64,000 bases of DNA, from contig JAJDCO010000094.1 of NCBI GenBank assembly GCA_029260795.1, forward strand, positions 161,193 through 225,192, read 5' to 3'. Below the pieces are notes generated by a model that saw only the letters and a list, made by a program, of their open reading frames with translations, did not search any database and had not been told where the DNA came from. The DNA comes from Planctomycetota bacterium. Its GTDB lineage: Bacteria; Planctomycetota; OFTM77. The translations under genes were made by a program, and so were the position numbers. Shown piece by piece: positions 27,871 to 54,640 of the stretch (positions are counted from its first letter, which is position 1; the number at the start of each line of letters is the position of its first letter).

Positions 27871-29166
27871 ATGTTGCGTCTCAGCCTCGCCCTCTCTTGC
27901 TCACTGCTCTGCGTGTCGCCGGCCTTGGCTCAGGAAGGCAGTGATTGGCCTCAGTTCCAGGGGCCCGATCGCTCGGGCGCTTCCACCGAGACCCAGCTGG
28001 CTTGGAGCTGGGGCGAGAGAGGCCCGAAGGTGATGTGGTCGACTGAGCTCGGCCCCGGCTACGGCGGAGCGGCGGTCCTGGGTGACGAGGTCTTCGTGCT
28101 CGATCGGATCGCGGAAGAGCAAGACATCCTGCGATGCTTCGACTTGGCGACCGGCAGCGAGAAGTGGAACTTCGCCTACGCCGCTCCGGGGCGACTGGAC
28201 TACCCGGGCTCGCGCGGAGTGCCGGCCGTGACCGCGGATCACGTGTACACGATCGGCGGATTCGGCCAGGTGCTGTGCGTCGACCGCAAGACGCATGAGC
28301 CGGCTTGGAGAGTCGACCTGGCGGACCAATACGAGGCTCACATCCCGCAATGGGGCTGGGCGCAGTCGCCCTTGGTCACCGAGAAGTCGGTCATCGTGGC
28401 GCCCCTGGCCCGAGACGCGGGGCTCGCCGCCTTGAACCTCCGGACGGGCAAGGAAGTCTGGCACTCCCCGGGACTGGGCACGACGCACTCCTCTCCGGCA
28501 TTGCTACACATCCAAGGGAAGGACCAGGTCCTCTTGGTCACGACCAAGGGTCGCACCGGTCTGATCACGAGCGTGGATCCGAAGACGGGGCAGATCCTGT
28601 GGCAGCACGACCAGTACTTCTGCCGTTTCCCCATCACGGCACCCATTCGAATCGACGACGAGCGCGTGTTCGTAACGGGCGGCTACGGAGCCGGCTCACT
28701 CATGCTGAAGGTCGCACGGGGCTCGAGCAAGAGCTGGTCGGTAACCGAGCTCTATCGGCTGGAGAAGGGCTCTCAGGTTCACCTCCCGATGCTGATCGAC
28801 GATCATCTCTATCTCATGGCGAACGAGAACGGCACGGACAGTCCTCGGCGGCGCCAGAATGGCGGCCTGATGTGTGTCGATCTGAAGGGCAACGTGAAAT
28901 GGCGCACCGGCGCCGAGCCCTACTTCGGTCGCGGAAACTCGATCGTGGTCGGTGGCCAGCTGATTACGCAGGACGGCCTCAGCGGCACGCTGCGAGTCAT
29001 CGAGCCGTCGCCTTCCCAGTACCGTGCCATTGCCGAGGCGAATGTGTTCGGCACCGAGACGCAGCGCGACGAGCACATGTGGGCGCCGATGGCGCTGAGC
29101 CGAGGTCGTCTGCTGATGCGGAGCCAAGATCGGATGCTCTGCCTGGACGTCCGCGCCAGCCAGTGA
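27871..29166 (+). CDS. PQQ-like beta-propeller repeat protein (BamB/PQQ_2-like), secreted (paralog 1)
   Basis: 431 aa; signal peptide; N-terminal WPQFQGPDRSG motif shared by the six paralogs; repeated propeller blades (G..YA.D..TG...W). Confidence 0.82.
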   Translation: MLRLSLALSCSLLCVSPALAQEGSDWPQFQGPDRSGASTETQLAWSWGERGPKVMWSTELGPGYGGAAVLGDEVFVLDRIAEEQDILRCFDLATGSEKWNFAYAAPGRLDYPGSRGVPAVTADHVYTIGGFGQVLCVDRKTHEPAWRVDLADQYEAHIPQWGWAQSPLVTEKSVIVAPLARDAGLAALNLRTGKEVWHSPGLGTTHSSPALLHIQGKDQVLLVTTKGRTGLITSVDPKTGQILWQHDQYFCRFPITAPIRIDDERVFVTGGYGAGSLMLKVARGSSKSWSVTELYRLEKGSQVHLPMLIDDHLYLMANENGTDSPRRRQNGGLMCVDLKGNVKWRTGAEPYFGRGNSIVVGGQLITQDGLSGTLRVIEPSPSQYRAIAEANVFGTETQRDEHMWAPMALSRGRLLMRSQDRMLCLDVRASQ

Positions 29167-29179
29167 GGCCGAGAAGAGG

Positions 29180-29214
29180 ATCAGCCCCGACCGATCGAAT
29201 GGTACGGGGCTGAT
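29180..29214. terminator. Hairpin between convergent genes (candidate bidirectional terminator)
   Basis: ATCAGCCCCG ... CGGGGCTGAT, 10-bp stem with 15-nt loop, 14 nt after the stop of the 27871-29166 gene. Confidence 0.3.
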
Positions 29215-29272
29215 TCGTGCTTGCGAGCGGGGTTGAGAGCGATCCACCCGCAGATTCTCGGTCAGGCGATCG

Positions 29273-29641
29273 TCAATCCGAGACGAGGGTCGTGCTCGTT
29301 CCATCCAGTCGGATGGAGAAGTGCGGCCGACCTCCGGTCTCGCGATTCAAATAGGCGACGAGGTCCATCCAACGATCGAGCTCGGACCCGGAGCTAGTCT
29401 CCAGATCGAAGGCCTCTGATCGTGTCGTCGCGCGCTTCGGAGCCGACAGGGTGCTCGTCGATTGCCGACCGGCTTGACTCGCCTTCTTCTTTCGTTGCGC
29501 GCGCTTTGCAGGGCTCGTTCCGAACACCTCACCCAGGTTGGCGGGCGGAATGCCCTTTCCGAACTTCTTCTTCACCTGGCTCTGAAGCGCACCCACGTTG
29601 CGCGCTTTGCCCTGTTGGAAGATCTTCTTACCGTAGGCCAT
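29273..29641 (-). CDS. Hypothetical small basic protein
   Basis: Start set at ATG 29641 (MAYGKKIFQQGKARNVG...); Lys-rich N-terminus and C-terminal ELDRWMDLVAYLNRETGGRPHFSIRLDG; no family recognised, so coding status is uncertain. Confidence 0.35.
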   Translation of the reverse strand: MAYGKKIFQQGKARNVGALQSQVKKKFGKGIPPANLGEVFGTSPAKRAQRKKKASQAGRQSTSTLSAPKRATTRSEAFDLETSSGSELDRWMDLVAYLNRETGGRPHFSIRLDGTSTTLVSD

Positions 29642-31189: not shown

Positions 31190-31909
31190 TCAGTTCGAGC
31201 GCGCCCCGATCGGAATCAGGTAGAGCGGGAGCTCGCGAGGAGACCCCCCCAGCGCCGCACGCACGAGATCGGAATCGATCCCTCCGACGGGCACGGCCCC
31301 CAGATCGAGCGCAGTCGCTTGCAGCAACAGGTTCTGGGCCGCGTGCCCGGCCTCGAGCTGCACGTAACGGGGCGCGATCTCGGCGTCGTACTCCGCGGCC
31401 ATGCGGTCGACGACGCCACACAGCACGAAGACCGCGGGCGCTTGGGCGAGGACCTTCTGATCGTAGGCGGCCGCAGGCAGCGCCGAACGCAGGTCTCCTC
31501 GGCGGTACAAGATCAGGCGATGGTCCTGCGGCTCGTAATGATAAAGGCCTTCCGGCAGCACGATCCACAGCTCGAGTGGGTAAGCGGGTCCAGCCGACGG
31601 CGCCGTGCGATGCCCATCGGCGTCCGTCGTCCCCTGTGCAGCCCAGGCGAGCTGCGAGATCTCTTCACGGCTCAGAGAGCGACCTCCGAACTCACGAATC
31701 GAGCGCCGTTGAGCCAAGACCTCTTCGAGCGACCGCTCCCCTTTCAATCGGGGTGCGGGAAGCTCGATCGTCTCCAGAGCCTCGCCTCGCTCGATCGGTC
31801 CCGAGCCGGTCTCGTCGCCACAGCTCGCCAGCCCGGCGAGCCCAATCAGGAGCACGAGACGACACAGGCCCGTCACTCGGATCACTGAGACTCCCCGGCT
31901 TGGAGGCAC
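31190..31909 (-). CDS. SagB-type dehydrogenase / nitroreductase-family protein (lipoprotein-like signal)
   Basis: 239 aa; nitroreductase-like N-terminal motif RRSIREF...LSREEISQLAWAAQG and SagB-like PSAGPAYP; N-terminal LAGLASCG lipobox-like signal. Confidence 0.78.
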   Translation of the reverse strand: MPPSRGVSVIRVTGLCRLVLLIGLAGLASCGDETGSGPIERGEALETIELPAPRLKGERSLEEVLAQRRSIREFGGRSLSREEISQLAWAAQGTTDADGHRTAPSAGPAYPLELWIVLPEGLYHYEPQDHRLILYRRGDLRSALPAAAYDQKVLAQAPAVFVLCGVVDRMAAEYDAEIAPRYVQLEAGHAAQNLLLQATALDLGAVPVGGIDSDLVRAALGGSPRELPLYLIPIGARSN

Positions 31910-33181: not shown

Positions 33182-34510
33182 TCAGGCTCCGCTCGCCTCA
33201 CCTTCGCCGCCGCCACTTCGGTGGATTCGCGGGCTCGCCTGACTCGGTGCCAGCGGGCGACCGTGCGAGAGCGGCTCGGGCAGAGTAGCAAAGGCCCTCA
33301 TGTCCTCGAACATCTGACCGAGGCTTTCTTGATAGACATTGCCGATCAGGCAATCCGTCAACGCCCGCCCGTGACTCGGGTGCGCCTTGAGGAAGTCACC
33401 AAAGTTGAAGCTCGAATCATAGAAGGCATAGACCAGTCGGCGCATGGCCTCGATGCCTTCGCAGAACCGATCGCCGTACTCGGTGAAGCGAGCGGCGCTG
33501 CAGTCTCCGTCCTTCAGGGCTTGCTCGACGGCATCCGCAGCCATGACCCCGGACTGCAAGGCCAGGAAGACACCGGAAGAGAAGACCGGGTCCAGGAAGG
33601 CGAAGGCATCGCCGGCGAGCAACAGGCCGTTGGCCGCGCAATGTCGCGATCGGTAGGAGTAGTCACCGGTCACCCGGAAGCTGCCGGCCTGTCGGCCTCC
33701 TCGAACGTGATCCCGAACCCACGGTTGAATGGCGAGCTCGCGCCGAAAGATCTCCTCGGGGTCGCGCGTGCCGCGGTACAGATACTCGCGGTCGGCGACG
33801 ACTCCGACGCTCACGCGATCATTCGCCATCGGGATGTACCAGAACCAGCCCTTCTCGGGCAGGTATGCGACCGTGGTCGCACCGGCATCGACACCGGTGT
33901 CGCGCTGAGCTCCGTCGAAGTAGGTCCAGATCGCGATCTTCTTGAGCACCTGATCCGGGATGCGCCACGAGTTCCGGAGCTGGGAGAAGGTATCCCGACC
34001 GCTGGCATCGATGGTGATGGGCGCATAGACCTCGTAGGTGCCGAGGTCCTTGGAATCGACCTCGAGGCCGGCCACCGAGTCTCCGTCCCAGATCAGCTGC
34101 CGGGCGGAGGTTTCGAACCGAGCCTCGGCTCCTTTCTCCACGGCATTGTCGACCATCAGAGTGTCGAAGTCGCTGCGCACGACCTGCCAGGTCCGCGAGC
34201 TGGGGTGATCGTCATGGTCGACGAAGTAGAAGGGTTTCGAGAGCTTGCCGCCAGTGTCGACGAACTGCACGCTCAGCTTCGGAAAGGCGAAGGCCGCCTG
34301 GTTCATCTTCTCCACCAGGCCCAGCCGATCGAGCGCGAACCAACAGTACGGGATCAAGGACTCCCCGACTCGGTAGCGAGGAAAGCTCTCCCGCTCGAGA
34401 ATGAGGACGGATCGACCGTACTCGGCCAAGACGGCGGCTGTCGCAGATCCTGCCGGTCCGGCGCCAATGACGATGGCGTCGAACTCGACCGGATGAGTCT
34501 TCGAGTTCAT
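33182..34510 (-). CDS. Flavin-dependent halogenase-like FAD enzyme (tryptophan-halogenase family)
   Basis: 442 aa; GxGxxG (IVIGAGPAGSATA), GESLIP region, Lys-containing AAFAFPKLSVQF segment, WxWxIP motif (GWFWYIP), C-terminal FLDPVFSSG motif. Confidence 0.8.
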   Translation of the reverse strand: MNSKTHPVEFDAIVIGAGPAGSATAAVLAEYGRSVLILERESFPRYRVGESLIPYCWFALDRLGLVEKMNQAAFAFPKLSVQFVDTGGKLSKPFYFVDHDDHPSSRTWQVVRSDFDTLMVDNAVEKGAEARFETSARQLIWDGDSVAGLEVDSKDLGTYEVYAPITIDASGRDTFSQLRNSWRIPDQVLKKIAIWTYFDGAQRDTGVDAGATTVAYLPEKGWFWYIPMANDRVSVGVVADREYLYRGTRDPEEIFRRELAIQPWVRDHVRGGRQAGSFRVTGDYSYRSRHCAANGLLLAGDAFAFLDPVFSSGVFLALQSGVMAADAVEQALKDGDCSAARFTEYGDRFCEGIEAMRRLVYAFYDSSFNFGDFLKAHPSHGRALTDCLIGNVYQESLGQMFEDMRAFATLPEPLSHGRPLAPSQASPRIHRSGGGEGEASGA

Positions 34511-36515: not shown

Positions 36516-39500
36516 CTATTCGCTGCGCAGAGCCGCGAGAAGGGGGCCTCGGAGGGCGAGCCAGGTCGCGGCCACGACCCAAGCGACTCCCGAGATGGCG
36601 ACGCCGATCACCAGGATGCCGGCCGCACCCCATGGGCTCTCGGCGCCCGGATCCGCCAGCGCCGGCCAGACCGCCACCGCTGCCGCCAGGATTCCGCTGA
36701 GCAACCCCAAGGCGAGCAAGGCGCCGTGCTCGCTCCACACGAGCCAGCGCACGGCCGAGCGCCGATATCCGACGGCCCGAACCAGCGCGAGCTCTGAGCG
36801 ACGCTCGAGCACGTTGCGAAGCACCACCGTCCCCAAGCCCGCCGCGCCCAACAACAATCCAAGCCCCCCCAGCATCTGAAAGATGACCAAGTAGGTGTTC
36901 TGCACCGAGTTGAAGGCGGCCAGCCGTTCCGCGGTGTCGGTCACCTCCAGGCCCATGTCCGCAAGCCCGCGGGTCAGCTCCCGCTCCACCTCGTCGGTTC
37001 GCGCCGGTGCCACGTCGAACAGAAACCAGCGATAGCCGCTCTCCGACGGGAACAGCTCCTCAAAGTGATCGCCGCCGATGACCAGATTGCCTTGGAGGAT
37101 CGAGTTGGCGACCGTCCCGACGATGCGAACCTGAAAGGGCCGACCCCGCTCATCCAGGTAGTCGATGGTGCCCCCGACCGACTTGTGGAGGGCCCACTGC
37201 ACGCTGGCGGCATCACCGATGGCCGGGATCGCGCCATCGGCCCGCTGCTCGAGCAACGTCCACGGGCTCCTGCCTTCCGCCAGGCCGAGATGGTCCGTGA
37301 ATCGAAACGCCTCGCGCTCTGCGAGCCGGGCCGGGTTCACGCCGACCAGACGCGGCTGCTGCGTTTGGTTGAGATTCAAGCAGCTCGCCTCGTCACCGTC
37401 CCGCACCCGGAACGACACGACGCTTCCAGGTGCCAAGAGGTCCTTGGGCAAAGCGTAGGCGTCGATCGCGTCCTGCGAGTCGAGGTCGTGGAGCACGCCG
37501 ATCGTCGCGCGCGCCTGCAGCGTGAAGCCCCCCGTGCCGGAGTCGCGCCGCGTCGGATCCTCGGGCTCTCCCAGACGGTTCGCTCCGACCGCGACGACCA
37601 GAAACGTCCCCGATGCTAGTAGCGAGATGGTGGCCAAGCTCCGCCCCGGGCGCCGCGTGCTGTTGCGCAGACCCAAACGACCGACGGTCTCCTTCTCCGG
37701 GAGCCCTTCGGAGCTCCAACCGGCCAGAAGCAGTCGGCTACCGAACAGGCCGGCCATGAGGAGCAGAGCCCCGACGCCGAAGAACGCCCCAGCTGCCGCC
37801 GTGCCTCGGCCCGGTCCGACCGCCACCGCGATGGCGATCGCCGCCACGACGCAGACGAGCGTCAGTATCACCAATGCCTTCCGTCGGCTCGCCGACAGCA
37901 CTCCCCCGCTCTCGCCAACGCCGCCTCGACGACCGAGCAGCTCTCTCGCCGAGCTCTTGGCCTGACGGCGCAAGGTCCCGGCGAGGGCCGCGAGTGCGGC
38001 CAGGATCGAGATCCCAGCGCCGAGGACGAGCGTCATCGGAGAGATCGCGACCGAGATCGCCGCGGAGGCGACGGCTTCTTTCCACACGCTCGCCAACGCG
38101 CCGAGCACGAGGCGGGTGTACCCGAGCGCGCCGAGAACACCGAGAGAGGCTCCGAGCACCGCGAGCACCAGGCCTTCACCGAGGAGGAGGCGCCGCACCT
38201 GCCGCGGTGTCCAGCCGACGGCGAGGAGAAGCCCGACCTGCGAAGCCCGCTGCTCGACGCCGAAGACGAAGAGCAACGCCGTCAGCAGGAAGGCCGCGAT
38301 CAGGAGGAAGGAGCTCAAACCGAGGAACAGGCCCCCAAAGTCCGTCGTCGCACGTCCCGAGGCGAGCGCCTGGCCGCGCAGATCCTGAAAGAAGAGCCCC
38401 AGGGCGGCCGGCCGGAGTGCGGACACGAGGTCCTGCTCGAGCGCGGTCCGATCCGTCTCGGAGAAGCGAACGGCCGTCAGGGCTCCGAAGCGATTGCCCC
38501 ACATCCCTTGCGCCGTCTCGAGCGTGATGAAGGCCTTGGGCGTGCCGTGGTGATCGTCCCAGTAGGCCTCGTCTTCGTCGCGGATGCGCTCGAGGTCGAC
38601 CGGGATACCCGGCTCCCAGTCGCGGCAGTCCTCGGTATCGGCCAGCCCGGGAAAACCGGGCATCAGCGAAGGATCGCCCGCGAAGCCCTCGAGCGGTGTC
38701 ACTCGCCCGACGGTGAAGACGTGCTCCTTCTCGACCAGTCGGCGATCGCGACCAATGGCGAAGTAGCGGATGCTCAGTCGGTCTTGTGCTTTGGCGCCGA
38801 GATCCGTTGCGAGCCAGCGGCCGAGGATCGTCCCATCGTTTGCCAGACCAGTTCCATAGAGGACGTGCCAGTCGGGAAAGTCTTCGGGCGCTCCGGCGAG
38901 CAGGCCAGCGCCGGCGACCATCGAGTACGGAGTCGCGCGATCACCGATCCGGAGCTCGTTGACGAAGTAGGTGAGAATGCCGAGCGCCGAGCGCGAGCCG
39001 CTTCGTACAGCCTCCTCCACCGGTGGATCGAGGAAGATGCGCTCACTGCGGAGCTCGAGCAAGCCGCTCTCGTGATCATGGAGGCTCAGCTCACCGTCCT
39101 CGAGCTTCCAATGCTGGGCGAGCGCTTCGTCGAGAGCTTCCGACGCGGGCGCCGAGTCTTCGGAAGCACCGGCGACGAGCAGCAAGTTGGCGCGCCCCGC
39201 GCGCTCGACGGTGCGCTGCAGCCAGTCGAGATCGACGAAGGCATTGAAGGGCGGAATCTGGTCGGCCTCGAGCGCGAACCGTCCGAATGTTTCGTCGGTC
39301 ACGATGGCGACGACCTCGACCCGCAACGCGGTCGCGACGTCGTCGCTGGTTGCGAGCGCCATGTCCCGCGGGAGTCCACTCGGCTTTTCGACTCGGAGCA
39401 AGATCGTGTCACCGACGGCGACCTCGAGCTGGCTCGCGAGCCGCTCGCTCACCAGCACTTGCCGAGGCCCAGGGAGCGGGCCGTTCCAGGCTGCCGCTCC

Positions 39501-41670: not shown

Positions 41671-41731
41671 GTTCACTCGACCGGAGAAAGGGAATCGTTC
41701 GCGCACAACGTGACGCCGACGACCTCGGGGG

Positions 41732-43099: not shown

Positions 43100-44434
43100 T
43101 CACGCATAACGCGCATTGCGGTGCTCCGAGCGGAAGAAGCGCGGCAACAGCTCATCGATGCGAAGTAGAGCGTCGCGCGTCACGTCAACCGCCTGCTCCG
43201 TCACCTTGAAATCACCCTGCGCCTCGAGCTCGGCCAGAGGCTCGGCGAAGCGTTGGCGCGGATCCTCCCCAAACTTCTGACGGAAGTACTCCAGCGGCAA
43301 GTGGCCGAGCTTGAGCTGCAAGATGAACTCTCGCACGAACTGCTCATCCTTCGTGAGCACCAGCGCCCGATGAATCGGAAGCTCGCCTCGCTCGACGCGT
43401 TCCACGTAGGGCTCGTAACGATGCTCGTTCTGCAGATGAACACCGCCGAGATGGCCGAACGACGACACGCCCAGGCCGATCAGATCTGCGCCCGTCCACA
43501 GCGCATCGCGATACCGGAACTCGATCCCCTCACCCTTCTTGGCCGTGGTGACCGAACCGATCTGGTATCCCGCCCGCTCCAGGGCAGCGTAGGCCTCTTG
43601 AGTCCAGCGTCGCTTGGTGGGCCAGTCGGCGACGGGAGCGACCTGCGTTCCGCCCTCTTGCATGCGCTGATAGATCGTCGTGTTGTACGGGACCTCGAGC
43701 TGATAGATGGTCACGTTGTCCGGCTCGAGCTTCAGCGTCTCCTCGATACAGCGGCGCCAGTTCTCATCCGTCTCGCCGACCATGCCGGCGATCAGATCGA
43801 TGTTGATCTGTTCGAAGCCGACATCCCGCGCCGTCTGGTAGGCGCCGTAGATCTCCTTGGCTCGATGGGCGCGGTTGTTGAGCGCGAGGATCTCGGCATT
43901 GAAGTTCTCGACACCCAGGCTCAGTCGCGTCACACCCAGCTCGTGAAGGACCTCGATCTTCTTCGTCTGCAGCGTGCCCGGCTCACACTCGAAGGTGACC
44001 TCCTCGGCCTCTGACCAGTCGAAGATGTCGCGCAACCCTTCGAACAGGAATCGGAGCTGATCCGGGGAGAGGTAGGACGGCGTGCCACCCCCGAAGTAGA
44101 CGAGCTTCGGTTGGCGACCTACGAGATAGGGCTGCTCGGCGTAGAGCCGTGACTCGGTCAGGACCGCATCGAGGTAGCGACGAACGTCTTGGGCGTTCTT
44201 GTCGGTGTAGACCTTGTAGTAACAGAAGTCGCAGCGCTTTCGGCAGAACGGAATGTGCACGTAGAGACCGAGCATCGGCGGAGACTCGGCCCCTTCCGAG
44301 AGAAGCTGGAGGACTCTCGGGACTTGGTCTTCTCGCCAGAACGAGAAGGGCGGGTAGTTGGCGATGAAGTAGTTACCGACCGTCGTCTCTTCTGTGGAAG
44401 GACCTGGGCTCTTCGGCTCATCGGAGCTCATCAA
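43100..44434 (-). CDS. Radical SAM enzyme, HemN-like (oxygen-independent coproporphyrinogen-III oxidase family; class-C radical SAM methyltransferases share this fold)
   Basis: 444 aa; CxxxCxxC cluster motif (CRKRCDFCYY), GGGTPS motif, C-terminal HemN_C-like region. Confidence 0.83.
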   Translation of the reverse strand: MMSSDEPKSPGPSTEETTVGNYFIANYPPFSFWREDQVPRVLQLLSEGAESPPMLGLYVHIPFCRKRCDFCYYKVYTDKNAQDVRRYLDAVLTESRLYAEQPYLVGRQPKLVYFGGGTPSYLSPDQLRFLFEGLRDIFDWSEAEEVTFECEPGTLQTKKIEVLHELGVTRLSLGVENFNAEILALNNRAHRAKEIYGAYQTARDVGFEQINIDLIAGMVGETDENWRRCIEETLKLEPDNVTIYQLEVPYNTTIYQRMQEGGTQVAPVADWPTKRRWTQEAYAALERAGYQIGSVTTAKKGEGIEFRYRDALWTGADLIGLGVSSFGHLGGVHLQNEHRYEPYVERVERGELPIHRALVLTKDEQFVREFILQLKLGHLPLEYFRQKFGEDPRQRFAEPLAELEAQGDFKVTEQAVDVTRDALLRIDELLPRFFRSEHRNARYA

Positions 44435-45702: not shown

Positions 45703-46881
45703 TCAACGAGTGCCATGGAGGGCCTCGCCGTACAAGGCCCGCAGCGAAGCCCGATCGACCGGCCGCGGATTGAAGCCGCCCGTCCACTGCTCGGCGGCCA
45801 GCTCGGCGAGCCCATCCAAGTCGGATTCAGCCACGCCGCATTCGGCCAACGATTCGGGCATCCCCGCCGCGTCCAGAAGCGCACCGATCCGTCGAGCCAG
45901 GCGATCGGCGGACTCGGAAGCCTGTCGGTCCCCGACAGCTGATGGATCGAAGAGCTCGGCGTAGAGCCGGGCGACGGCAGGATCCTCGGCATTGAAGCGC
46001 ACCACCGTGGGCAGCATCAGCCCGACGGCTCGACCGTGCTCGGTGTCGAAGCGAGCGGTGAGCGGATTGGCGAGCGCATGCGCCGCGCCCAGCATGCTCG
46101 CCTCGATCGCGAGACCCGCGAAAGCCGAGGCGAGGAGCATTCCACCGCGAGCCGTGTGGTCGCTCGGCGCCGAGAGCACCGTCTCCAAGTGTCGATTCAC
46201 AAGGCGAAATGCCTCCTTCGCCCAGAGCGACGAGACGGGATTTCGGCGGCTGGTGACGAAGGACTCGACGGCGTGCGTCAGGGTATCGATACCGGTGTGG
46301 GCGGTAACGTGAGTCGGCATCGTCTCGGTCAGCACCGGATCGAGCAGGGCGATGCGCGGCTGGGCGCTCGGGTCCCCGCACGCCATCTTGCGGTGGGATT
46401 CCAGCTGCGAGATCAGCGCGAAGGATTGTACCTCGCTGCCCGTGCCTGCGGTCGTCGGGACCGCGATCATCGGGAGGAGAGGCGTCGCGACCGGCCCACT
46501 TCGCCAGTAGTCCTTCATGCTTCCACCATTGGTCAGCAGGAAGTTCGCACCCTTGGCGGTATCGAGGCTGCTCCCGCCACCGAGGCCGAGGATCAGGTCC
46601 GGAGCGTGTGGCGCCGCGGCCGCTCGACAGCGCTCGACATCCTCGGTGGTCGGATTCTGATGAACCTCCGAGAAGACGGCGGTCGGCAAGCCGGCGGCCT
46701 CGAGCGCGGCTCGCACGGGCTCGACGTGCCCCGCGGCGACCAGACCGGCATCACTCACGAGCAGGACGCGCCGCGCGCCCAGCGATCGACAGAGCTCGGG
46801 AATCCGGGCGGCCGCGCCTACACCGAAGACGAGACGCGGGCCGAGCGCGAGATCGAATTCGGCAGGCGGATCCGGAGTCAT
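45703..46881 (-). CDS. Iron-containing (group III) alcohol dehydrogenase
   Basis: Start set at ATG 46881 (MTPDPPAEFDLALGPRLVFGVG...); Fe-ADH motifs (GLGGGSSLDTAKG, metal-binding His region HTGIDTLTHAVESF). Confidence 0.85.
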   Translation of the reverse strand: MTPDPPAEFDLALGPRLVFGVGAAARIPELCRSLGARRVLLVSDAGLVAAGHVEPVRAALEAAGLPTAVFSEVHQNPTTEDVERCRAAAAPHAPDLILGLGGGSSLDTAKGANFLLTNGGSMKDYWRSGPVATPLLPMIAVPTTAGTGSEVQSFALISQLESHRKMACGDPSAQPRIALLDPVLTETMPTHVTAHTGIDTLTHAVESFVTSRRNPVSSLWAKEAFRLVNRHLETVLSAPSDHTARGGMLLASAFAGLAIEASMLGAAHALANPLTARFDTEHGRAVGLMLPTVVRFNAEDPAVARLYAELFDPSAVGDRQASESADRLARRIGALLDAAGMPESLAECGVAESDLDGLAELAAEQWTGGFNPRPVDRASLRALYGEALHGTR

Positions 46882-46891
46882 GGACGGTCGA

Positions 46892-48334
46892 TCACCATTG
46901 GGCGGCACGCTGGATGGCCCGACGCGCGTAGAGGAACTCGAACAGGTTGCCTTCGTGGGGCTGATCCCACTCGACATGGCCGGTCGGAACGGGACCCAGG
47001 TTGAGCCGATGGATCTCCGGCGAGCGCAGCAGCCGGCTCTGCAGCACGGTGTTCTTCGTGATCGCCGAGACGACCAAGGACGGGCCGAGCGTCTCGATCC
47101 ACTCGTCTTCGGGCAGCTCGACCACACTGACGTACGGAAACAGGAACTCGGTGTTGGCAAGTGGGTGATCGAAGCGTTGGCAGCGGACCACGGTCGGAAG
47201 CAGGTAGGTGGAGCCCTCGACCTCGACTCGGCGCGGCCCGGTTCGAAATCGTGCGGTCAGGTCTTCGGCGCCGCCTTGGGCCAGACCGGCATCGATCGTA
47301 CTGTCAATCCACTCGGCGACCTTGGGGTTGGCGAAAGCCGAGAGCTGCGCCTCGGGATCGGCCGCCGGTCGAGCTTCGATGCGGGCGAGGCGCTCGGCGA
47401 GCGCCTCGGCGATCTCGTCGCCGTGCGCGGGCACGATGATGGCCGAGGCGTTGACGCAGCTGCGCCCGCCGTTCGCCGCGACCGAGTCGGCGAGGACGTC
47501 CAGGTGATCTCGCCACCGCTCGATCTCGTCGGACCCGACGAGCACCTTGCTCCAGCCGGGACCATGGATCTCGATGCCCGGGTTCTGCGCATACTGAGCG
47601 GTCGTCTTCGCATCACCGAAGATCAAGCCGCGTCCACACTGCTCGAGGATCGACGCCGCGCCCTCATGATCGGTCGGGTAGTAGCTGAAGGCCTCGCGGG
47701 GCGCCCCCGCCTCGATGAAGGCCTGCATGATGCGGAGGGGTGTCCAGGGCTCCTCGCGGCCCGGCTTGAGCACGACCGGTATCTTGAGCGCCAGCGCCGG
47801 AATCCAGAGCGAGTTCACGCCCGGCGAGTTGCTCGGGAGCACGATGCCCAGGCTGTTCGTCTGCGGAACGTAGGAGACCGGGACGCCGTCCTGCTCGCCG
47901 ATCCCCGCCTCGAGCACCGACAGATCGAGGCCCCGTGTGAGGCCTTTCAGGATGCGCGGCATCTCCGCGAAGACGCTGTGGATCTTGTCCATGTTGCGGC
48001 GACACAGCACATGGGGAAGACCGCTGGTAGCGCTGAGCGTCTCGACGTACTGCTCGGGACCCTGTCGATCGCCCTGGTCGTTGAGCGGCAGCTCGGCCTG
48101 CATGAACAGCTCACCGGCTCGGCGACAGACGTCGATCATCTCGACGACGCTGAGGTCGGCGAATGGATCGGGACTGCGCTCTTGCTTACGCAGATCGCGA
48201 CGCACCAGGCCGGCATTGACCTGGCTGACCAGGGCGAGGGGTGTGCCATCGCGATGCGAGCGGACCTCGTTGGTCTCGAGGCTCTCATAGAACTGGCCCG
48301 CACGCAGTGCCGGAATGGGAATCGGCTTCGACAT
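46892..48334 (-). CDS. Aldehyde dehydrogenase-superfamily protein, acyl-CoA reductase (LuxC)-like
   Basis: Start set at ATG 48334 (MSKPIPIPALRAGQFYESLE...); ALDH-like fold with candidate catalytic Cys (GGRSCVNAS). LuxC-like assignment is by family recollection and the LuxE/PaaK-like neighbour. Confidence 0.75.
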   Translation of the reverse strand: MSKPIPIPALRAGQFYESLETNEVRSHRDGTPLALVSQVNAGLVRRDLRKQERSPDPFADLSVVEMIDVCRRAGELFMQAELPLNDQGDRQGPEQYVETLSATSGLPHVLCRRNMDKIHSVFAEMPRILKGLTRGLDLSVLEAGIGEQDGVPVSYVPQTNSLGIVLPSNSPGVNSLWIPALALKIPVVLKPGREEPWTPLRIMQAFIEAGAPREAFSYYPTDHEGAASILEQCGRGLIFGDAKTTAQYAQNPGIEIHGPGWSKVLVGSDEIERWRDHLDVLADSVAANGGRSCVNASAIIVPAHGDEIAEALAERLARIEARPAADPEAQLSAFANPKVAEWIDSTIDAGLAQGGAEDLTARFRTGPRRVEVEGSTYLLPTVVRCQRFDHPLANTEFLFPYVSVVELPEDEWIETLGPSLVVSAITKNTVLQSRLLRSPEIHRLNLGPVPTGHVEWDQPHEGNLFEFLYARRAIQRAAQW

Positions 48335-48339
48335 GGTGC

Positions 48340-49416
48340 TCAGTACACTCCTTCGACGATCTTCTCTTCGTTGGCCCGAAAGGGTCGGACCTCGCCGACG
48401 CCATCCCACGGGTATTCGTCGTAGGGCCGGCGCCGGATGGCCTCATCTCGCTCGAGAAAGCGCGGCATGAAGAACTCGCGCGTCAGCGTCGTGAGCTCGA
48501 CTCGACCCCAGGCATCGTAGTCGACCAGCTCGTCGGTCGCTTCGGGCTGAACCACGCGCAGAACCGCCCGTGGCTGAGGCGCATGATAGGTCACCGAGTA
48601 GCCGTCCTCGCGCAGGGTCGGCTTGGAGTGCGCCAGACCCATCAGCGTGTTGCCGTAGGTCGGAACGAGCTTGACCTCGTCCTCGAGCACCTCCTCGACC
48701 AGGAAGCGCAGGATCTGCGGGGACATCTCGGTGCCTCCACAGAAGACTCCCTGGATGCCGGCTTCGGGGATCGAGACGCGCTCGCTGAGCGCCTCGAGGA
48801 GCTTGGGCGTCGTGAACAGCGCACTCACCTTCCGATGCTTCAAGATCGTGACGGCCTGATCGACGACGTGGACCATGTAGGCCTTGGCTTGATCCCCATG
48901 CCCTTCACGAATCAGCCGCTTCACCCAGCGCGGATCGAGATCGATGAAGTAGCAAGAGCAGCCGCGGACGTTGGCGAGGTGCTCGATCGAGAGGCGAAGA
49001 CGTCGCGGCCCGGTCGGGCCCATCATCAGCCAGTAGTGGTTCCGCGGGAACGCGTCGTCGTCGAGCGTCTCCGAGAACTCGCTGTAGTCGATCTTGTAGT
49101 CTTCCCAGCCGATCCGCTGCTTGGGCATGCCGGTCGTGCCGCCGGTCTCGAAGATGGTGAACGGCTTCCCCGCGTAGGCTTTCGGCGCAAAGCGCTCCGG
49201 TTGCTCGACGCGCAGGTGCTCCCCATCGAAGTGGCCGAAGCGGACGAGATCGTCGAAGCCTTGCACTTCGTGCGCGGGATCCCAGCCCGCCTTCTGTGCC
49301 CACTCGAGCCAGAAGGGGCTGCCCGTCTCGGGCGAGAAGTGCCACGGGACGATCTCGCGGATGTGCGCATCCAGCTGGGCGCGAGCTTGCTCCGGATCCT
49401 GGGGACGCGTGCTCAT
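48340..49416 (-). CDS. LuxE/PaaK-family adenylate-forming enzyme (acyl-protein synthetase / phenylacetate-CoA ligase-like)
   Basis: 358 aa; PaaK-type nucleotide-binding motif FETGGTTGMPK; 4-nt overlap with the upstream symporter. Confidence 0.72.
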   Translation of the reverse strand: MSTRPQDPEQARAQLDAHIREIVPWHFSPETGSPFWLEWAQKAGWDPAHEVQGFDDLVRFGHFDGEHLRVEQPERFAPKAYAGKPFTIFETGGTTGMPKQRIGWEDYKIDYSEFSETLDDDAFPRNHYWLMMGPTGPRRLRLSIEHLANVRGCSCYFIDLDPRWVKRLIREGHGDQAKAYMVHVVDQAVTILKHRKVSALFTTPKLLEALSERVSIPEAGIQGVFCGGTEMSPQILRFLVEEVLEDEVKLVPTYGNTLMGLAHSKPTLREDGYSVTYHAPQPRAVLRVVQPEATDELVDYDAWGRVELTTLTREFFMPRFLERDEAIRRRPYDEYPWDGVGEVRPFRANEEKIVEGVY

Positions 49417-51020
49417 TGAGGGTTCTCCACGATGCGTGCCGCCTCATGGACGGCGAAGAAACGATCGACGACGGCGGGGCTGGGGGGCTTCGTCACGAGC
49501 GAGACTCCGACCAGAGTCAGCGCGGAAGCGGCAAAGATATAGACGACGGGCAGCACGCCACCGAGGACGAGGTACTCGTCGGCACCGCGCAGCGTTCCCG
49601 CGATCGCGGGCGCGATGAGCCCGTCATAGAAGAAGGCCGACCACACTCCGACCATCACGAGGACGGAAGCGATAGCGCCTGCCTTGGTCGTGCGTCGCCA
49701 GTACACGGCACAGAACACGAGCGGGAACAGGCTGGCGAAGCCGCTGAAGCACCAGACCGCGAGGTCGAAGATGTTGGGCGGCTTGAGCAGCGACAGAAAG
49801 TAGGTGATCGCGACGATGGCGACGATGAAGCCGCGTCCCAAGAGGAGCTTCCCCCGATCAGTGAGACGGTCCTCACCCACCGCGTGCAGGACGATGTCGT
49901 GCGTGAACATCGTGCCCAGGCAAACGAACTGCGAGTCCATCGAGGACATGATCGCCGCCAGGATGCCCGCCGTGAGGAGCCCGGTCAGAATCGGATTGTG
50001 GAGCAGCTGGTTCACCATCAACGACAAGACGGCGTTCGGGGTGGGCGCCTTGATCCCGTGGCCGGCCGCCCAGATGCCGATCAAGATGCAGGGCACCCAC
50101 ACGATCATGATGAAGATCGGGTGCGCGATGATACTGAGCCGGAAGGTCTTCGCGCTGCGAGCGGTCAGCCAATGCTGGAAGAGGTGCGGAAACATCCCCA
50201 CCGAGAACGGGACCAGCATGTAGCTGAGGAACTGGGCCTTCCCGATCATGCCGTCACGGGTGAGATGATCCTTCGCGTTGTCCTTCACCGCTTGGGTCGC
50301 CGCTTCGAGTCCCCCGAGCCGATCGGAGATCAGCAGGAAGGCGACCACTCCCATGATCATGAAGACCAACGTCTGGAAGGTGTTCGCCCAGGCGGCGCCG
50401 CGCAGCCCGCCACCCGAGATGTAGAAGAGCACTACGGCGCAGACGACCAGGCCTGAGAGCCAGGGGGGCACCGAGCCCACCATGATCATCTTGCCGGCCG
50501 GGTTCAGACGCCCTTCGAAGACGTCCGGGAACATGCCCTGCGTCACGCCTTCCATCACCACTCCGGCGCCCAGCACCCCGATCAAGAGGTACGGGATCAC
50601 CAGCAGGACGAGGATCGGAAACAGTAGGTAACCCAGGCCGTTCGATTCGAAGCGATCGCGGAAGTACTGGATCTGCGTGACGTAGCCGTAGCGCTTGCCG
50701 ATCGCCCACAGCTTGATGCCGACCACGAAGAAGATCAGCGAGTGGATGATGCCCGACGAGGACGCCATCAATCCGTATACGCCGACGCCGAGCTGGTAGG
50801 CCTTGCCCGTCGATCCGACCAGTGCGAACGCGGTCATGGTCGTGCCGAACACGCTCATCAGGAGCAGGAACGGACCGATCGAGCGCGTGGCGACGAAGTA
50901 ATCCGAGCTCGTCCCGCGAAAGAAGCGCTTCGAAACGACGCCGAGCCCGATCAGCAGCATCAGGTACCCGGCGATGACCCACAAGGGACCCAAGTCGCCG
51001 ATCACGGCCAGCGGAGTCAT
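49413..51020 (-). CDS. Sodium:solute symporter family (SSF) transporter
   Basis: Start set at ATG 51020 (MTPLAVIGDLGPLWVIAGYL...); ~13 TM helices with SSF-like organisation. Confidence 0.87.
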   Translation of the reverse strand: MTPLAVIGDLGPLWVIAGYLMLLIGLGVVSKRFFRGTSSDYFVATRSIGPFLLLMSVFGTTMTAFALVGSTGKAYQLGVGVYGLMASSSGIIHSLIFFVVGIKLWAIGKRYGYVTQIQYFRDRFESNGLGYLLFPILVLLVIPYLLIGVLGAGVVMEGVTQGMFPDVFEGRLNPAGKMIMVGSVPPWLSGLVVCAVVLFYISGGGLRGAAWANTFQTLVFMIMGVVAFLLISDRLGGLEAATQAVKDNAKDHLTRDGMIGKAQFLSYMLVPFSVGMFPHLFQHWLTARSAKTFRLSIIAHPIFIMIVWVPCILIGIWAAGHGIKAPTPNAVLSLMVNQLLHNPILTGLLTAGILAAIMSSMDSQFVCLGTMFTHDIVLHAVGEDRLTDRGKLLLGRGFIVAIVAITYFLSLLKPPNIFDLAVWCFSGFASLFPLVFCAVYWRRTTKAGAIASVLVMVGVWSAFFYDGLIAPAIAGTLRGADEYLVLGGVLPVVYIFAASALTLVGVSLVTKPPSPAVVDRFFAVHEAARIVENPQ

Positions 51021-51292
51021 GCCGCACCTCCCGAGCTCGCGTCGTCTTCTTGGGCCGCCCACGCTTCGAGCTCACTCGGCCAGGCGAAGCGCACCACCAA
51101 GGCCCAGACGATCCCGGCAGCAATCGAGATCCCGGCGTGGTAGGCCAGCCCCAGCGGCAGAAAGCCGAAGATCAGCGAGTCGTTCGACCAGTTCCACAGG
51201 TCCTGGCGCAGGATGGCGAGCACCCCGACCAACGACCACACGATCCACCACGCCGTTGGGCGACGGCTTCCACTCATTCCATCGACTCCCAT
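51017..51292 (-). CDS. Small membrane protein, DUF3311-like (class commonly encoded upstream of sodium:solute symporters)
   Basis: 91 aa; two hydrophobic helices (WWIVWSLVGVLAIL..., GLAYHAGISIAAGIVWALVV); ATGA overlap with the symporter start. Confidence 0.55.
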   Translation of the reverse strand: MGVDGMSGSRRPTAWWIVWSLVGVLAILRQDLWNWSNDSLIFGFLPLGLAYHAGISIAAGIVWALVVRFAWPSELEAWAAQEDDASSGGAA

Positions 51293-51762: not shown

Positions 51763-53157
51763 CTACCGATCCACCGCATCACCGACCGCGCGACGACACA
51801 GCTCTTCAGCACGCTTCACCAGCTCGTCGTCCCTCAGCGTCGCGTTCGAGAACACCATCTCGACCGCGATGCTGCCGCGCGCTCCGACCAAGCTCAGAGT
51901 CTCGATCCGATCGGGCCCGGCTCCCTCCAGCCCCTTGGCTGCCAGCACTGCCTGGAAGCCCGGGCGGCGGATCGACTCGTAGCGTGGATCGACGATCCGG
52001 ATGGAGCCGGTCTTCATCGCCTCGTCTTTCAGCTTGCCCAGCTGCTCGAAAGCAGCGACGTAGCCGAGCGCACCGGCCGCGTCCTTGAACTCGTACAGCC
52101 CCACGATGACCTGCTGAGCCGGATTCTCGGCCGGGGCCATCACCAGCAATCGGTTGTGCAGGAGCGATCCGACGACCTGCTCGACGGACTCCTTGGGCAG
52201 GAGGGCGAGCGCGGCCGCGATCTGCGGCTTCACTGCCACGGCTTGCTGCGCATTCCAGCCCTCGAAGGTCTTCGAGAACTCGGTGAGAGCTCCTTCGAAG
52301 TCGTGTTTCAGCTCCGGACGCTTGGAGGGATCGAGATACCACTCGGGATGGAGGATCACGTCGAGATCTGCCGGCGGCTCGCGAAACAGTCGCCCAACCA
52401 GCTCCGCCTGCTCGGCGTCTCCTTGCCCCTCCAGGAGGGTCGCCACGAAGCGCTCGCCGTCGTAGTACGCGACGCTCATCGACGCCGCCGCGACTCGGCT
52501 GAGCAACTTCGTCGCCTCGTCACCCTTTTCGGGAACCCAACCGATGGCCGACGTGAACTGATCGAAGGCCTCTTTCCAGCCCTGCTGCTCGCACACCTGG
52601 CGAGCTCGATGCTGGGCGTATCCTTCGATGATCGCCTGATAGGCCTGAAAGCGGCCGGCCGTCGACAGGGTGTCGAGCACCTTGCCGAACTCGTGCCGCT
52701 GGTCGTCGAGCGCGTGCATCGCCTCGTGGACCAACACGGCTTGCAGGCACTGACGTGAGTTGAGCTCCGGCTTCTCCATGAGCTTCGAGAGGTTCTCGAA
52801 GTTGGTCGCACAGATCAGGATCGTCTGCGAGTCGAATGCATACTTCCCGAGCAGAGCCATCGAGAGCGCGCCGGCACCGAGCCGAGCTTGCGTTTCGGGA
52901 TCTTCGATCCCCTGTGCCCGGAGCTGTCGCTCCAGCTCGGGCCGGAGCACCTTCGCGATGTCCGCCGGCTCGGCGAGGCGCACCTTCGTCTCCGGCATCT
53001 CGAGCTCGAGCGCTGCCTCGATGGCCCGCTCGGCCTCCGACCAGCATTCGCGCAGCAACGCGGCGTCGATCTCGAAGGCATCGGAAGCCTCGAGATCCTG
53101 GCTGCAGGAGAGGGGCGACAGCAACAGGACCGCGATCAGGACAGGAAGGGCACGCAT
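51763..53157 (-). CDS. Secreted HEXXH-motif protein, putative zinc metallopeptidase (paralog-like to 18828-20234)
   Basis: Start set at ATG 53157 (MRALPVLIAVLLLSPLSCS signal); VHEAMHAL followed ~25 aa later by EGYAQH, the same HEXXH...EGxA arrangement as the 18828-20234 protein. Confidence 0.65.
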   Translation of the reverse strand: MRALPVLIAVLLLSPLSCSQDLEASDAFEIDAALLRECWSEAERAIEAALELEMPETKVRLAEPADIAKVLRPELERQLRAQGIEDPETQARLGAGALSMALLGKYAFDSQTILICATNFENLSKLMEKPELNSRQCLQAVLVHEAMHALDDQRHEFGKVLDTLSTAGRFQAYQAIIEGYAQHRARQVCEQQGWKEAFDQFTSAIGWVPEKGDEATKLLSRVAAASMSVAYYDGERFVATLLEGQGDAEQAELVGRLFREPPADLDVILHPEWYLDPSKRPELKHDFEGALTEFSKTFEGWNAQQAVAVKPQIAAALALLPKESVEQVVGSLLHNRLLVMAPAENPAQQVIVGLYEFKDAAGALGYVAAFEQLGKLKDEAMKTGSIRIVDPRYESIRRPGFQAVLAAKGLEGAGPDRIETLSLVGARGSIAVEMVFSNATLRDDELVKRAEELCRRAVGDAVDR

Positions 53158-53365
53158 CGGGATTCTCCTGGAATTCGTCGCAGCGGCGTTGGGCGAGCCG
53201 CGATCATCGCAAAGGAACGCGGGTCCGAGAAGCGCCGTTCGGCCTCGAGGTGACGCCACGACGTTCCCACCACGGCTCTCGACGGAGCCCCTTGCCCCGA
53301 CTGCGGTGCCCGAGGACACTAGGGGCCGGTCCGACGCGCTCGCCCACCGATTCGGGAGGCTGTCC

Positions 53366-54640
53366 GTGCTGTTTTCGCAGGTGATGCTCTTTTCCGTCCT
53401 CCTAGGGACCTCGACCATCCGCGACGAAGAAGCGGCCGCTTGGCCGGACTTTCGTGGACCGCGCGGCGACGGGCACGCCATCGCCACTGCTCGCCCGCCC
53501 GTCGAATGGAGCGAAGAGCGGTACGTGACCTGGAAGACACCCGTTCACGGGCTCGGCTGGTCGTCGCCGGTCGTCGTCGACGGTCAGGTGTGGATGACCA
53601 CCGGCACCGAAGATGGGCACCGACTCTCGGTGGTTGCCGTCGATCTCGCGTCGGGCGCGGTCGTGCACGATCGCGTGCTGTTCGAGGTCGATGAGCCCCA
53701 GTTCCGGAATGCGCTCAATAGCCATGCCTCCCCCTCACCCGTCGCGATGCCTGGCCGCGTGTTCGTCCACTTCGGCGCCTACGGAACGGCGGCCTTGGAC
53801 TCCCGGACGGGCGAGACGGTTTGGCAACGACGCGATCTCCCCTGCCAGCACCTGATGGGACCCGGTTCCTCTCCCGTGCTGGTCGACGGTCGCCTCGTGC
53901 TCACTTTCGACGGGGCCGATCGTCAAGTGGTCGTGGGACTGGACCCGGCGACTGGCGAGACGCTCTGGGAGACGCCGCGCTCGACCGACTTCACGAACAT
54001 CATCCCGGACCAACGCAAGGCTTACGGAACGCCCTTCGTCGCCGAGGTCGACGGCCAGCGGCAGCTGGTGAGCGTGGGCGCGCAGGCGGCGTTCGGACTC
54101 GATCCCCGCACCGGCGTCGAGCTGTGGCAGGTGCGAATCCCCGGCTACTCCATGTCCTCGCGCCCCTTCGCGGGCCGCGGCCTGACCTTCATCAACACCG
54201 GCTTCGATCGACCGCAGCTCTGGGCAATTCGCCTGGGTGGTCTGGGCGATGTGACCGAATCCCACGTAGCATGGAAGGAGACGCGCAGCCTCCCGACCAT
54301 CGCCTCGAAGGTGCTCGTCGACGACCGAATCTACCTGGTCAGTGACGGAGGCGTGCTGGGCTGTTTGAAGGCGGACACCGGCGAGACGATCTGGCGCGAG
54401 CGCATCGGGGGCCGCTTCTGCGCCTCGCCGATCGTGGCCGGCGGACACGTCTACTTCTTCGACCGCGAGGGCATGGCCACGGTGATCGTACCCGAGGACG
54501 AGTATCGCCTCGTCGCCCAGAACAGCCTCGAGGCGGGCTGCATGGCATCGCCCGCCGTCATCGGAAACGCCCTCATCGTCCGCACGACCTCCCACCTCTA
54601 TCGGATCGAGGGCCCGAAGCGGGCCGACTCGAAACGCTAG
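53366..54640 (+). CDS. PQQ-like beta-propeller repeat protein (paralog 6)
   Basis: Start tentatively GTG 53366, preceded by GGGAGG 6 nt upstream (ATG 53384 is an alternative); WPDFRGPRGDG motif; propeller repeats. Confidence 0.78.
   Translation: MLFSQVMLFSVLLGTSTIRDEEAAAWPDFRGPRGDGHAIATARPPVEWSEERYVTWKTPVHGLGWSSPVVVDGQVWMTTGTEDGHRLSVVAVDLASGAVVHDRVLFEVDEPQFRNALNSHASPSPVAMPGRVFVHFGAYGTAALDSRTGETVWQRRDLPCQHLMGPGSSPVLVDGRLVLTFDGADRQVVVGLDPATGETLWETPRSTDFTNIIPDQRKAYGTPFVAEVDGQRQLVSVGAQAAFGLDPRTGVELWQVRIPGYSMSSRPFAGRGLTFINTGFDRPQLWAIRLGGLGDVTESHVAWKETRSLPTIASKVLVDDRIYLVSDGGVLGCLKADTGETIWRERIGGRFCASPIVAGGHVYFFDREGMATVIVPEDEYRLVAQNSLEAGCMASPAVIGNALIVRTTSHLYRIEGPKRADSKR

Follow-up and report, generated by a model that had tools for sequence, protein, structure and literature searches.

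BamB (YfgL), the periplasmic docking scaffold and lipoprotein subunit of the beta-barrel assembly machine (BAM), is a cofactor-less 8-bladed beta-propeller of about 350–400 amino acids (aa) in the PQQ_2 family. Its superfamily also includes the alcohol and methanol dehydrogenases that use pyrroloquinoline quinone (PQQ), as well as propellers that work without PQQ, such as the tetrathionate hydrolase of Acidithiobacillus ferrooxidans (PDB 6L8A) and YxaL of Bacillus (PDB 7DXN, 7EQ5), a secreted stand-alone 8-bladed protein. A different group of envelope systems, LolCDE-LolA, MacAB-TolC, DevBCA-HgdD and FtsEX, combines a LolD/MacB/DevA-like ATPase with MacB core/FtsX modules; the MacB-type machines act on periplasmic-side substrates and rely on periplasmic partners, and DevBCA exports a glycolipid. 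Here we describe a locus that brings relatives of both groups together. It lies in a 64,000-nucleotide stretch of DNA of a Planctomycetota bacterium (GTDB lineage OFTM77; GenBank assembly GCA_029260795.1, contig JAJDCO010000094.1, forward-strand positions 161,193 to 225,192), referred to below as the window, and contains six genes for apparently secreted PQQ-like propellers, P1 to P6, four of which stand in a long minus-strand array with the genes of an ATP-binding cassette (ABC) transporter with an FtsX-type permease (Table 1).

The six propellers share the family of BamB, and the P4 propeller matches it in fold with a template-modelling score (TMt) of ~0.78, but there are six copies within 27 kb, without a lipobox and with scores far below the BamB equivalog cut-offs, and their partners are an ABC/FtsX exporter and a GT4 glycosyltransferase rather than BAM; P4 also carries an extra lipocalin-like domain. 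With the PQQ dehydrogenases the alignment is limited to the N-terminal ~300 residues (7WMD, 4CVB). P4 is like tetrathionate hydrolase in fold, but the latter is a sulfur enzyme of an acidophile without an ABC/GT4 context, and nothing ties the window proteins to tetrathionate. YxaL is matched in both sequence and structure, but at only ~15% identity, and it belongs to a Gram-positive organism and a different gene context. Compared with the MacB-type machines, two permease modules are fused into one ~1100-aa protein in the window, all curated cut-offs of those families are missed, and beta-propellers occupy the neighbouring positions, with no membrane-fusion protein and no LolA or LolB encoded among the array genes scanned.

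The relationship between the propellers and the exporter was investigated by comparing loci from other genomes. A pattern from the permease loop retrieved 368 relatives in GTDB genomes. To avoid circularity, the loci for comparison were chosen by the fused FtsX permease rather than by the propellers; 80 loci from GTDB species genomes were collected and their open reading frames (ORFs) were searched with the window proteins. A P5-type propeller and a GT4 gene were found on the same strand upstream of FtsX in 36 of the 50 loci with at least 9 kb of upstream sequence, and 16 of these 36 also contain the radical S-adenosylmethionine (SAM) gene. A propeller starts no more than 1.7 kb after the permease in 23 of the 64 loci with at least 3 kb of downstream sequence. 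The cluster-positive loci contain 0–4 propellers each, at a density of 11.7 per 100 kb; where the permease occurs without the cluster, the density is 1.6 per 100 kb. This seven-fold difference from the control loci bears out the enrichment of the family near the array, which the first-pass annotation had made a check on its interpretation. By their deposited labels, the cluster-positive loci span more than ten phylum-level lineages and include Planctomycetota (several orders), Verrucomicrobiota, Armatimonadetes, Aminicenantes, KSB1, Calditrichota, relatives of Bacteroidales, Desulfatiglandales, Poribacteria, Sumerlaeia and Anaerolineales.

The core of the cluster consists of a P5-type propeller, a GT4, a LolD-like ATPase, a fused FtsX/MacB permease of 1100 aa and a second propeller. 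A longer form adds a HemN-class radical SAM protein, a flavin adenine dinucleotide (FAD) oxidoreductase, a hotdog thioesterase, a protein with five transmembrane segments (5-TM), an iron-containing alcohol dehydrogenase, an aldehyde dehydrogenase-like protein, an adenylate-forming-like protein and a symporter. P5 and P4 belong to the core, and relatives of P1, P3 and P6 recur in the cluster.

A neighbour-joining tree of P1–P6 with 113 propellers of other genomes also reflects these positions. P5 falls in a clade of 52 members that always lie upstream of a GT4 or radical SAM gene, and P4 in a clade whose members immediately follow the permease in Planctomycetota. Another clade located directly after the permease is sister to the clade that contains P1, and P1 relatives (300–380 bits) adjoin the same cluster in loci of Opitutales, Desulfatiglandales and Pirellulales. 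Relatives of P3 and P6 stand directly beside the ATPase or permease in other phyla: P3 groups with cluster-linked propellers of three loci (L008, L059 and L066), and P6 with propellers beside ABC/FtsX genes in loci of KSB1, Aminicenantes, Vicinamibacteraceae and Planctomycetaceae. In a reciprocal check, two P5 orthologues obtained from a search with P5 were both within the cluster, and one of the two loci contains four PQQ_2 genes in 21 kb.

Literature searches for the cluster, by its combination of FtsX, PQQ propeller, glycosyltransferase and radical SAM genes and by PQQ propellers in Planctomycetes, yielded nothing relevant, and no curated model or defence-system model describing the cluster was found, which is not proof that it is undescribed. 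The propeller family and the large numbers of "BamB" paralogues in Planctomycetes are already known. What we rate as new is a MacB/Lol-type ABC system that has beta-propellers, and not membrane-fusion or LolA-type proteins, as its conserved neighbours.

Type VII ABC machines act on periplasmic-side substrates by means of large periplasmic domains and need periplasmic partners. From this need, and from the synteny of the propellers with such a machine and a GT4, we infer that the propellers are located in the periplasm and dock on the permease, what kind of cargo is moved, and that they have a role in its hand-off. In this model the cytoplasmic enzymes of the cluster would build a glycosylated amphiphile, and the ABC machine would expel it from the inner membrane by mechanotransmission, like LolCDE, MacB and DevCA. 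The periplasmic propellers could dock on the two large periplasmic domains of the permease, as BamB does on BamA, and take up the cargo, retain it or relay it, and for this cargo the lipocalin-like barrel of P4 might provide a pocket. The reading we prefer, at about even odds, is that the propellers assist, in the periplasm, an exporter of Lol/MacB type whose substrate is a glycosylated amphiphile. The earlier proposal that they act as scaffolds or substrate-presenting partners fits plausibly with synteny to an ABC/FtsX machine.

It is also conceivable, though we consider it rather doubtful, that the cluster encodes an undescribed envelope machine present across many phyla, in which a fused Lol/MacB permease and dedicated BamB-like propellers form a Lol/Lpt-like periplasmic relay for a GT4-made glycolipid. 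If so, propellers, one of them with a lipocalin-like barrel, would take the place of LolA, membrane-fusion or Lpt proteins, and part of the many "BamB paralogues" in Planctomycetes and neighbouring groups would serve as subunits of such machines. Genes labelled "BamB" or "PQQ-binding-like repeat protein" number in the dozens in Planctomycetes, in Verrucomicrobia and in several candidate phyla, and the synteny gives the P5-type and post-permease propellers a concrete, testable context. A partnership with the exporter would represent a new way to couple a type VII ABC machine to the periplasm, and possibly a pointer to an envelope glycolipid so far overlooked in diderm phyla that have received little study.

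Several observations weigh against propellers as partners of the exporter. Two P2 orthologues and one P4 orthologue stand alone elsewhere, outside any such cluster, and linkage to the cluster is therefore optional for some subfamilies. About 30% of the loci selected by FtsX contain no propeller. The match of the P4 N-terminal domain to lipocalins is at the fold level only. Among the residues kept invariant in the P4 and P5 families are His, Cys, Arg, Asp and Lys, which could form part of a binding site but just as well of a catalytic or metal site, and the gene contexts of P1 and of a propeller clade represented at a Pirellulales locus (L043) hint at redox roles.

The last two points also speak for the strongest alternative, in which the propellers are periplasmic enzymes, either cofactor-less hydrolases or lyases or metal- or quinone-dependent redox enzymes. 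They would act on the product after its export or on a substrate from outside, and the ABC/FtsX machine would supply the substrate or activate them as FtsEX does its partners. Tetrathionate hydrolase is the top structural match of P4, yet the sequence identity is only 12–15%, and models of PQQ dehydrogenases reach 20–96 bits against a cut-off of 480, with the window propellers ~150–200 residues shorter than the solved quinoproteins. The invariant polar residues of the P4 family and the Cys/His/Asp patch on blades 4–6 of the P5 family would suit an enzyme, but a surface that binds a protein or ligand is just as likely to be conserved in this way. Adding the position of P1 in an apparent operon with cytochrome c and GSDH-like genes, and that of the related clade among ferredoxin and NuoF-like genes at L043, we regard enzymatic propellers as possible but on the unlikely side.

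A second alternative attributes the co-location to the size of the family, members of which would come to lie near each other in planctomycete genomes while having unrelated jobs. Planctomycetes have dozens of BamB-like paralogues, the P2 and P4 orthologues mentioned above stand alone, and P1 and P6 are on the other strand in transcription units of their own. The genome of Tuwongella immobilis contains 28 BamB paralogues (PMC8567305). At an assumed genome size of about 6.7 Mb, some 0.27 propellers would be expected in 64 kb, and the Poisson probability of finding six or more is ~4e-7, a rough figure taken from another organism. The recurrence of P5-type and post-FtsX propellers in the same positions in more than ten phylum-level lineages, the difference in density from the control loci, and the overlap between the P5 and radical SAM genes all argue against chance. 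We consider co-location without functional meaning improbable, and for P5 and P4 the conserved synteny already speaks against it.

The propellers could alternatively be clients of the transporter, that is, exported proteins or lipoproteins for whose release from the inner membrane a Lol-like ABC machine is dedicated. LolD is the closest match of the ATPase, and a lipobox-like pattern occurs near the N-terminus in 39 of 120 P5-family proteins, but five of the six window proteins have no lipobox, the ALSC of P1 (residues 7–10) is too near the N-terminus, and the constant GT4 partner and the tailoring enzymes would be left unexplained, which makes a client role quite improbable. Least probable of all, to the point that we give it very little weight, is that one or more of the six (P2 most plausibly, whose family is conserved and usually stand-alone) is the organism's genuine BamB in outer-membrane protein assembly: the fold matches BamB and public pipelines label relatives "outer membrane protein assembly factor BamB", but the equivalog scores are far too low (27–153 bits against cut-offs of 285 and 423), there is no lipobox, and no BAM genes are nearby.

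The six ORFs were confirmed at the positions given by the first-pass annotation, with coding-type G+C contents at third codon positions of 0.79–0.83 (the window has a G+C content of 63–68%). The exact proteins (431, 424, 421, 608, 399 and 424 aa for P1 to P6) are called genes in a public protein collection, all on a single NCBI contig of 227,939 bp and with identical starts. Likewise, P5, P4, P3 and P2 do lie within the minus-strand array, a co-directional run of 21 kb from nt 29810 to 51062. No further propellers of the P1–P6 family turned up among the other window ORFs scanned.

The six proteins had been grouped by an N-terminal motif, and the pattern W-[PN]-x-[FW]-[RQ]-G indeed occurs 6 times in the six-frame translation of the window, once in each of P1–P6 and nowhere else. 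In 200 first-order Markov sequences generated from the window with the same dinucleotide frequencies, the mean number of occurrences is 0.12 and the maximum 2. The motif is not, however, particular to these proteins but a hallmark of the whole propeller family across phyla: of 120 propeller ORFs from loci in other phyla, 86 have it, as do 118 of 120 P4-family and 77 of 120 P5-family proteins. The description of a signal peptide followed by the motif stands in part: all six have a hydrophobic N-terminal segment, but in P4 the motif is reached only at residue 181, after a leader of 180 residues comprising the signal-like segment, a beta-barrel domain of ~120 aa and a linker. The barrel covers residues ~42–163 (nt 35917–36282), the Trp of the motif (W181) is at nt 35865, and the propeller extends over residues 181–608. 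Signal peptides were judged from hydrophobicity alone, and export is less certain for P2 and P6 because with their annotated starts the hydrophobic segment is not preceded by a positively charged n-region.

All six proteins are beta-propellers of the secreted PQQ-like type, as proposed, and pass the Pfam PQQ_2 model (PF13360, gathering threshold 27.6 bits) with 93.0, 122.9, 88.4, 61.0, 154.9 and 97.8 bits for P1 to P6, respectively. In addition, P5 reaches 202.4 bits with Beta-prop_ACSF4 (PF13570, cut-off 133 bits), compared with 34–45 for the other five. The expected 8-bladed architecture was obtained both from the structure model of P4 and from the blade parse of P5. The latter has seven complete, regular ~40-aa blades and an eighth composed of residues 357–386, which form three C-terminal strands, and residues 41–69, which start with WPSFRG. 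The AlphaFold model of P4 (predicted local distance difference test score, pLDDT, of 88) shows N-terminal bridges and, beyond residue 205, 31 strands; its last blade likewise consists of three C-terminal strands. The motif would therefore be a cap ahead of the N-terminal strand that completes the last blade of the 8-bladed ring, with the strand pairing being a prediction. P1, P2, P3 and P6 are probably also 8-bladed, given their full-length alignment.

Structure comparison of P4 with Foldseek gave tetrathionate hydrolase as the best match (E = 2e-16), followed by BamB and YxaL. The nearest PDB sequence matches of P5 are designed "Cake" propellers, then 3HXJ, YxaL and BamB. A profile of the six proteins aligns from the motif region onward to quinoproteins 7WMD and 4CVB. 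PQQ alcohol dehydrogenases have a comparable W-x-x-(Y/P)-G segment in their N-terminal part, a likeness of motifs rather than of residues aligned one by one. When the N-terminus of P6 was compared with solved proteins, only BamB blades were matched and the motif region was left unaligned. The view that these are not PQQ enzymes holds: an assignment as PQQ dehydrogenases is very unlikely and was rejected, with scores of 20.1–95.7 bits over partial alignments against the TIGR03075 cut-off of 480, and propellers of ~370–430 aa that are too short beside the ~570–600 aa of solved quinoproteins. The annotation "BamB" was rejected as well, since none of the six passes the equivalogs TIGR03300 and NF008351 (cut-offs 285.2 and 423 bits; 153.3 and 117.3 bits for P5, the best, and 27–79 for the other five) or has a convincing lipobox; a regular-expression search found none in P2–P6, and the ALSC of P1 comes before the end of the hydrophobic core. 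No bam genes were found in the 64-kb window. The related locus L004 has an Omp85/TamB pair on the opposite strand, at a distance of ~5 kb, which is not informative on an association with BAM. P1 also matches weakly a model named "PLuB system PQQ-binding repeat protein", a term absent from the literature searched. The six genes thus probably encode exported, cofactor-less 8-bladed propellers of the BamB/PQQ_2 type with a presumed periplasmic location.

The homology of the six extends over their full lengths (blastp E-values of 1e-6 to 1e-39), but the further claim of a lineage-specific expansion did not survive. Pairwise identities are 21–30%, with three groups (P1/P2, P3/P4/P6 and P5 alone); in the tree no two window proteins are sisters, and each groups with proteins of other genomes. 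Because the six are only 21–30% identical, they are better regarded as old subfamilies, apparently at least five, than as recent duplicates. P4, P5 and P2 each have thousands of homologues, with full-length orthologues at 50–70% identity in other genomes, the named sources being mostly Planctomycetota or Phycisphaerales; the P2 family has more than 4400 homologues and orthologues at 55–65% identity. The closest relative of the locus found is in a Planctomycetota metagenome-assembled genome (MAG; L004), where P4 is 67% and the FtsX permease 66% identical and the genes follow the same order from the symporter to the nitroreductase, without P3 and P2. The lineage-specific part is the gene arrangement: old subfamilies have come together around one conserved exporter cluster, with P3 and P2 as local additions.

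The N-terminal domain of P4 resembles lipocalins with Foldseek E-values of at least 0.006 and a template-modelling score of ~0.5. Its profile matches about 1000 cluster representatives in 1.84 billion proteins, and among the fetched loci it is found only in P4-type proteins, the propellers that follow FtsX. Small genes without assignment that come after FtsX at L089 and L005 were considered as split-off N-domains and rejected, as the profile found no separate N-domain gene at either locus. At L025 (Planctomycetota; 13123–15276), the P4-type N-domain and the propeller are in separate adjacent ORFs, and at L072 (Planctomycetota; 15613–16338) the ORF of the P4-type N-domain ends after 242 codons; these arrangements could be split genes, frameshifts or assembly errors.

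Invariant polar residues of the P4 family are H221, R292, H293, K295, E317, D368, D438, H457, R528 and E555. In the P5 family the invariant residues form a patch on the B–C hairpins of blades 4–6 (C215, D216, H220, H256, Y257, N259, R298, D299, H303 and C304). Residues 215–304 of P5 contain the motifs GGCDxxLH, GHYGN and GGRDxxLHC at equivalent hairpin positions of three neighbouring blades, which together include two invariant cysteines and three invariant histidines. To judge from these residues, the patch looks like a metal site or a redox-active site.

Table 1. Propeller genes P1 to P6 and the genes of the minus-strand array, in order of position in the window
Gene or product	Position (nt)	Strand	Remarks
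P1	27871..29166	+	431-aa PQQ_2 propeller; motif WPQFQG, W codon at 27946
P2	29810..31084	-	424-aa PQQ_2 propeller; motif WNQWRG; last array gene
Nitroreductase-fold, SagB-family	31190..31909	-	PF00881 98.7 bits; TIGR03605 83.3 bits vs cut-off 78.4
P3	31882..33147	-	421-aa PQQ_2 propeller; motif WPGFRG; between FAD enzyme and nitroreductase
FAD-dependent oxidoreductase	33182..34510	-	Pfam Trp_halogenase, FAD_binding_3; NCBIfam all below cut-offs; recurs in long cluster form
P4	34579..36405	-	608 aa; signal-like segment, lipocalin-like 8-stranded barrel, linker, motif WPAFRG, 8-bladed propeller
Fused double FtsX/MacB-type permease	36516..39857	-	1113 aa; ~10 predicted transmembrane segments, two large extracytoplasmic loops
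LolD/MacB/DevA-like ABC ATPase	39854..40582	-	4-nt overlap with permease gene
Small 5-TM membrane protein	40598..41152	-	184 aa; no Pfam or NCBIfam match; conserved in long cluster form across phyla
Hotdog (4HBT_2) thioesterase	41179..41904	-	Real start probably near nt 41670; L004 orthologue 155 aa
GT4 glycosyltransferase	41732..43078	-	Core partner of P5-type propeller
HemN/HemW/ChuW-class radical SAM protein	43100..44434	-	Start overlaps P5 stop
P5	44431..45630	-	399 aa; signal-like segment, motif WPSFRG, eight regular ~40-aa blades
Iron-containing alcohol dehydrogenase family protein	45703..47160	-	True start later than longest ORF
Aldehyde-dehydrogenase-superfamily protein	46892..48409	-	Pfam Aldedh 55.5 bits; kept in L025, L032, L077, L089
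Weakly AMP-binding-like (adenylate-forming) protein	48340..49416	-	Pfam 28.7 bits, just under cut-off; kept in L025, L032, L077, L089
Sodium:solute symporter family protein	49413..51062	-	First array gene
P6	53366..54640	+	424-aa PQQ_2 propeller; motif WPDFRG; 2.3 kb beyond array start, opposite strand

The array is tightly packed, with all gaps at most 110 nt and several stop and start codons overlapping, which suggests that its genes form operons. In the direction of transcription the order is symporter, adenylate-forming-like protein, aldehyde dehydrogenase-like protein, iron-containing alcohol dehydrogenase, P5, radical SAM protein, GT4, hotdog thioesterase, 5-TM protein, ABC ATPase, permease, P4, FAD oxidoreductase, P3, nitroreductase and P2. 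A scan for promoters and terminators gave terminator-like sites at the level expected from shuffled sequences.

The best match of the ATPase is LolD (TIGR02211), at 252.1 bits against a cut-off of 307.75, which is not reached; nor is that of the DevA family (184.7 against 295.8 bits). The permease passes both Pfam FtsX (70.2 bits, cut-off 25.5) and MacB_PCD (47.6 bits, cut-off 27) and has two FtsX modules; its two periplasmic domains span about residues 36–504 and 758–987. Its first periplasmic loop contains, at residues ~400–450, the invariant stretch [EA][DN]CRDW[EN]P ... IRD[KE]DE[AQ]YW, and this acidic and aromatic segment is a candidate functional or docking site. The size and topology of the 5-TM protein recall small flippase-type proteins or halves of drug/metabolite transporters, and may be no closer a likeness than that. 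The FAD oxidoreductase resembles halogenases, geranylgeranyl reductases and QhpG. An identity of the aldehyde dehydrogenase-like and adenylate-forming-like proteins as a LuxC/LuxE fatty-acid reductase was rejected, with a modest Aldedh score, a sub-threshold AMP-binding score and nothing specific in NCBIfam. For the array genes of the transporter, the glycosyltransferase, the radical SAM protein, the FAD enzyme, the thioesterase, the alcohol dehydrogenase and the 5-TM protein, every NCBIfam model stays below its cut-off. NCBIfam gave just two matches above cut-off, one to the SagB domain in the nitroreductase-fold gene and the other to a module of SoxX type encoded in the cytochrome c gene that lies upstream of P1. 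PADLOC made no specific assignment to a defence system, with generic ABC-ATPase matches and one LolE transmembrane match of 19.8 bits.

Outside the array, the window contains a XerC/D-type tyrosine recombinase (12421–13347, minus strand), a sulfatase (13653–16064, minus strand) and an N6/N4 DNA methyltransferase (15844–17196, plus strand), with no evidence of a link between these genes and the propellers. P1 and the end of the array converge. Directly upstream of P1 and on its strand (23438–27753, plus strand) are the genes of a 942-aa multi-haem cytochrome c with a PA14 domain, one module of which passes SoxX (66 bits against 61), and of a DUF7133/GSDH-like protein with a weak likeness to the "PVC-type haem-binding" N-terminal domain. 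Given these neighbours, P1 may be part of a redox operon and not of the array. P6 is divergent from a minus-strand gene (51763–53160) whose product has a signal-like segment and no Pfam domain and weakly matches the Hvo_1808 family of surface proteins (40.9 bits, cut-off 200).

A redox context is also seen at the Pirellulales MAG locus L043 (14844–22099), where the genes downstream of the cluster, present in its short form, encode an NHL-repeat protein, a 2x[4Fe-4S] ferredoxin, a Fer4_5 polyferredoxin-type protein, a 580-aa PQQ_2 propeller and a NuoE/NuoF-like fusion flavoprotein, with a pyruvate:ferredoxin oxidoreductase upstream. In view of these ferredoxin and NuoE/NuoF-like neighbours, an electron-transfer context may also apply to the propeller clade that many loci have ~4 kb downstream of their permease.

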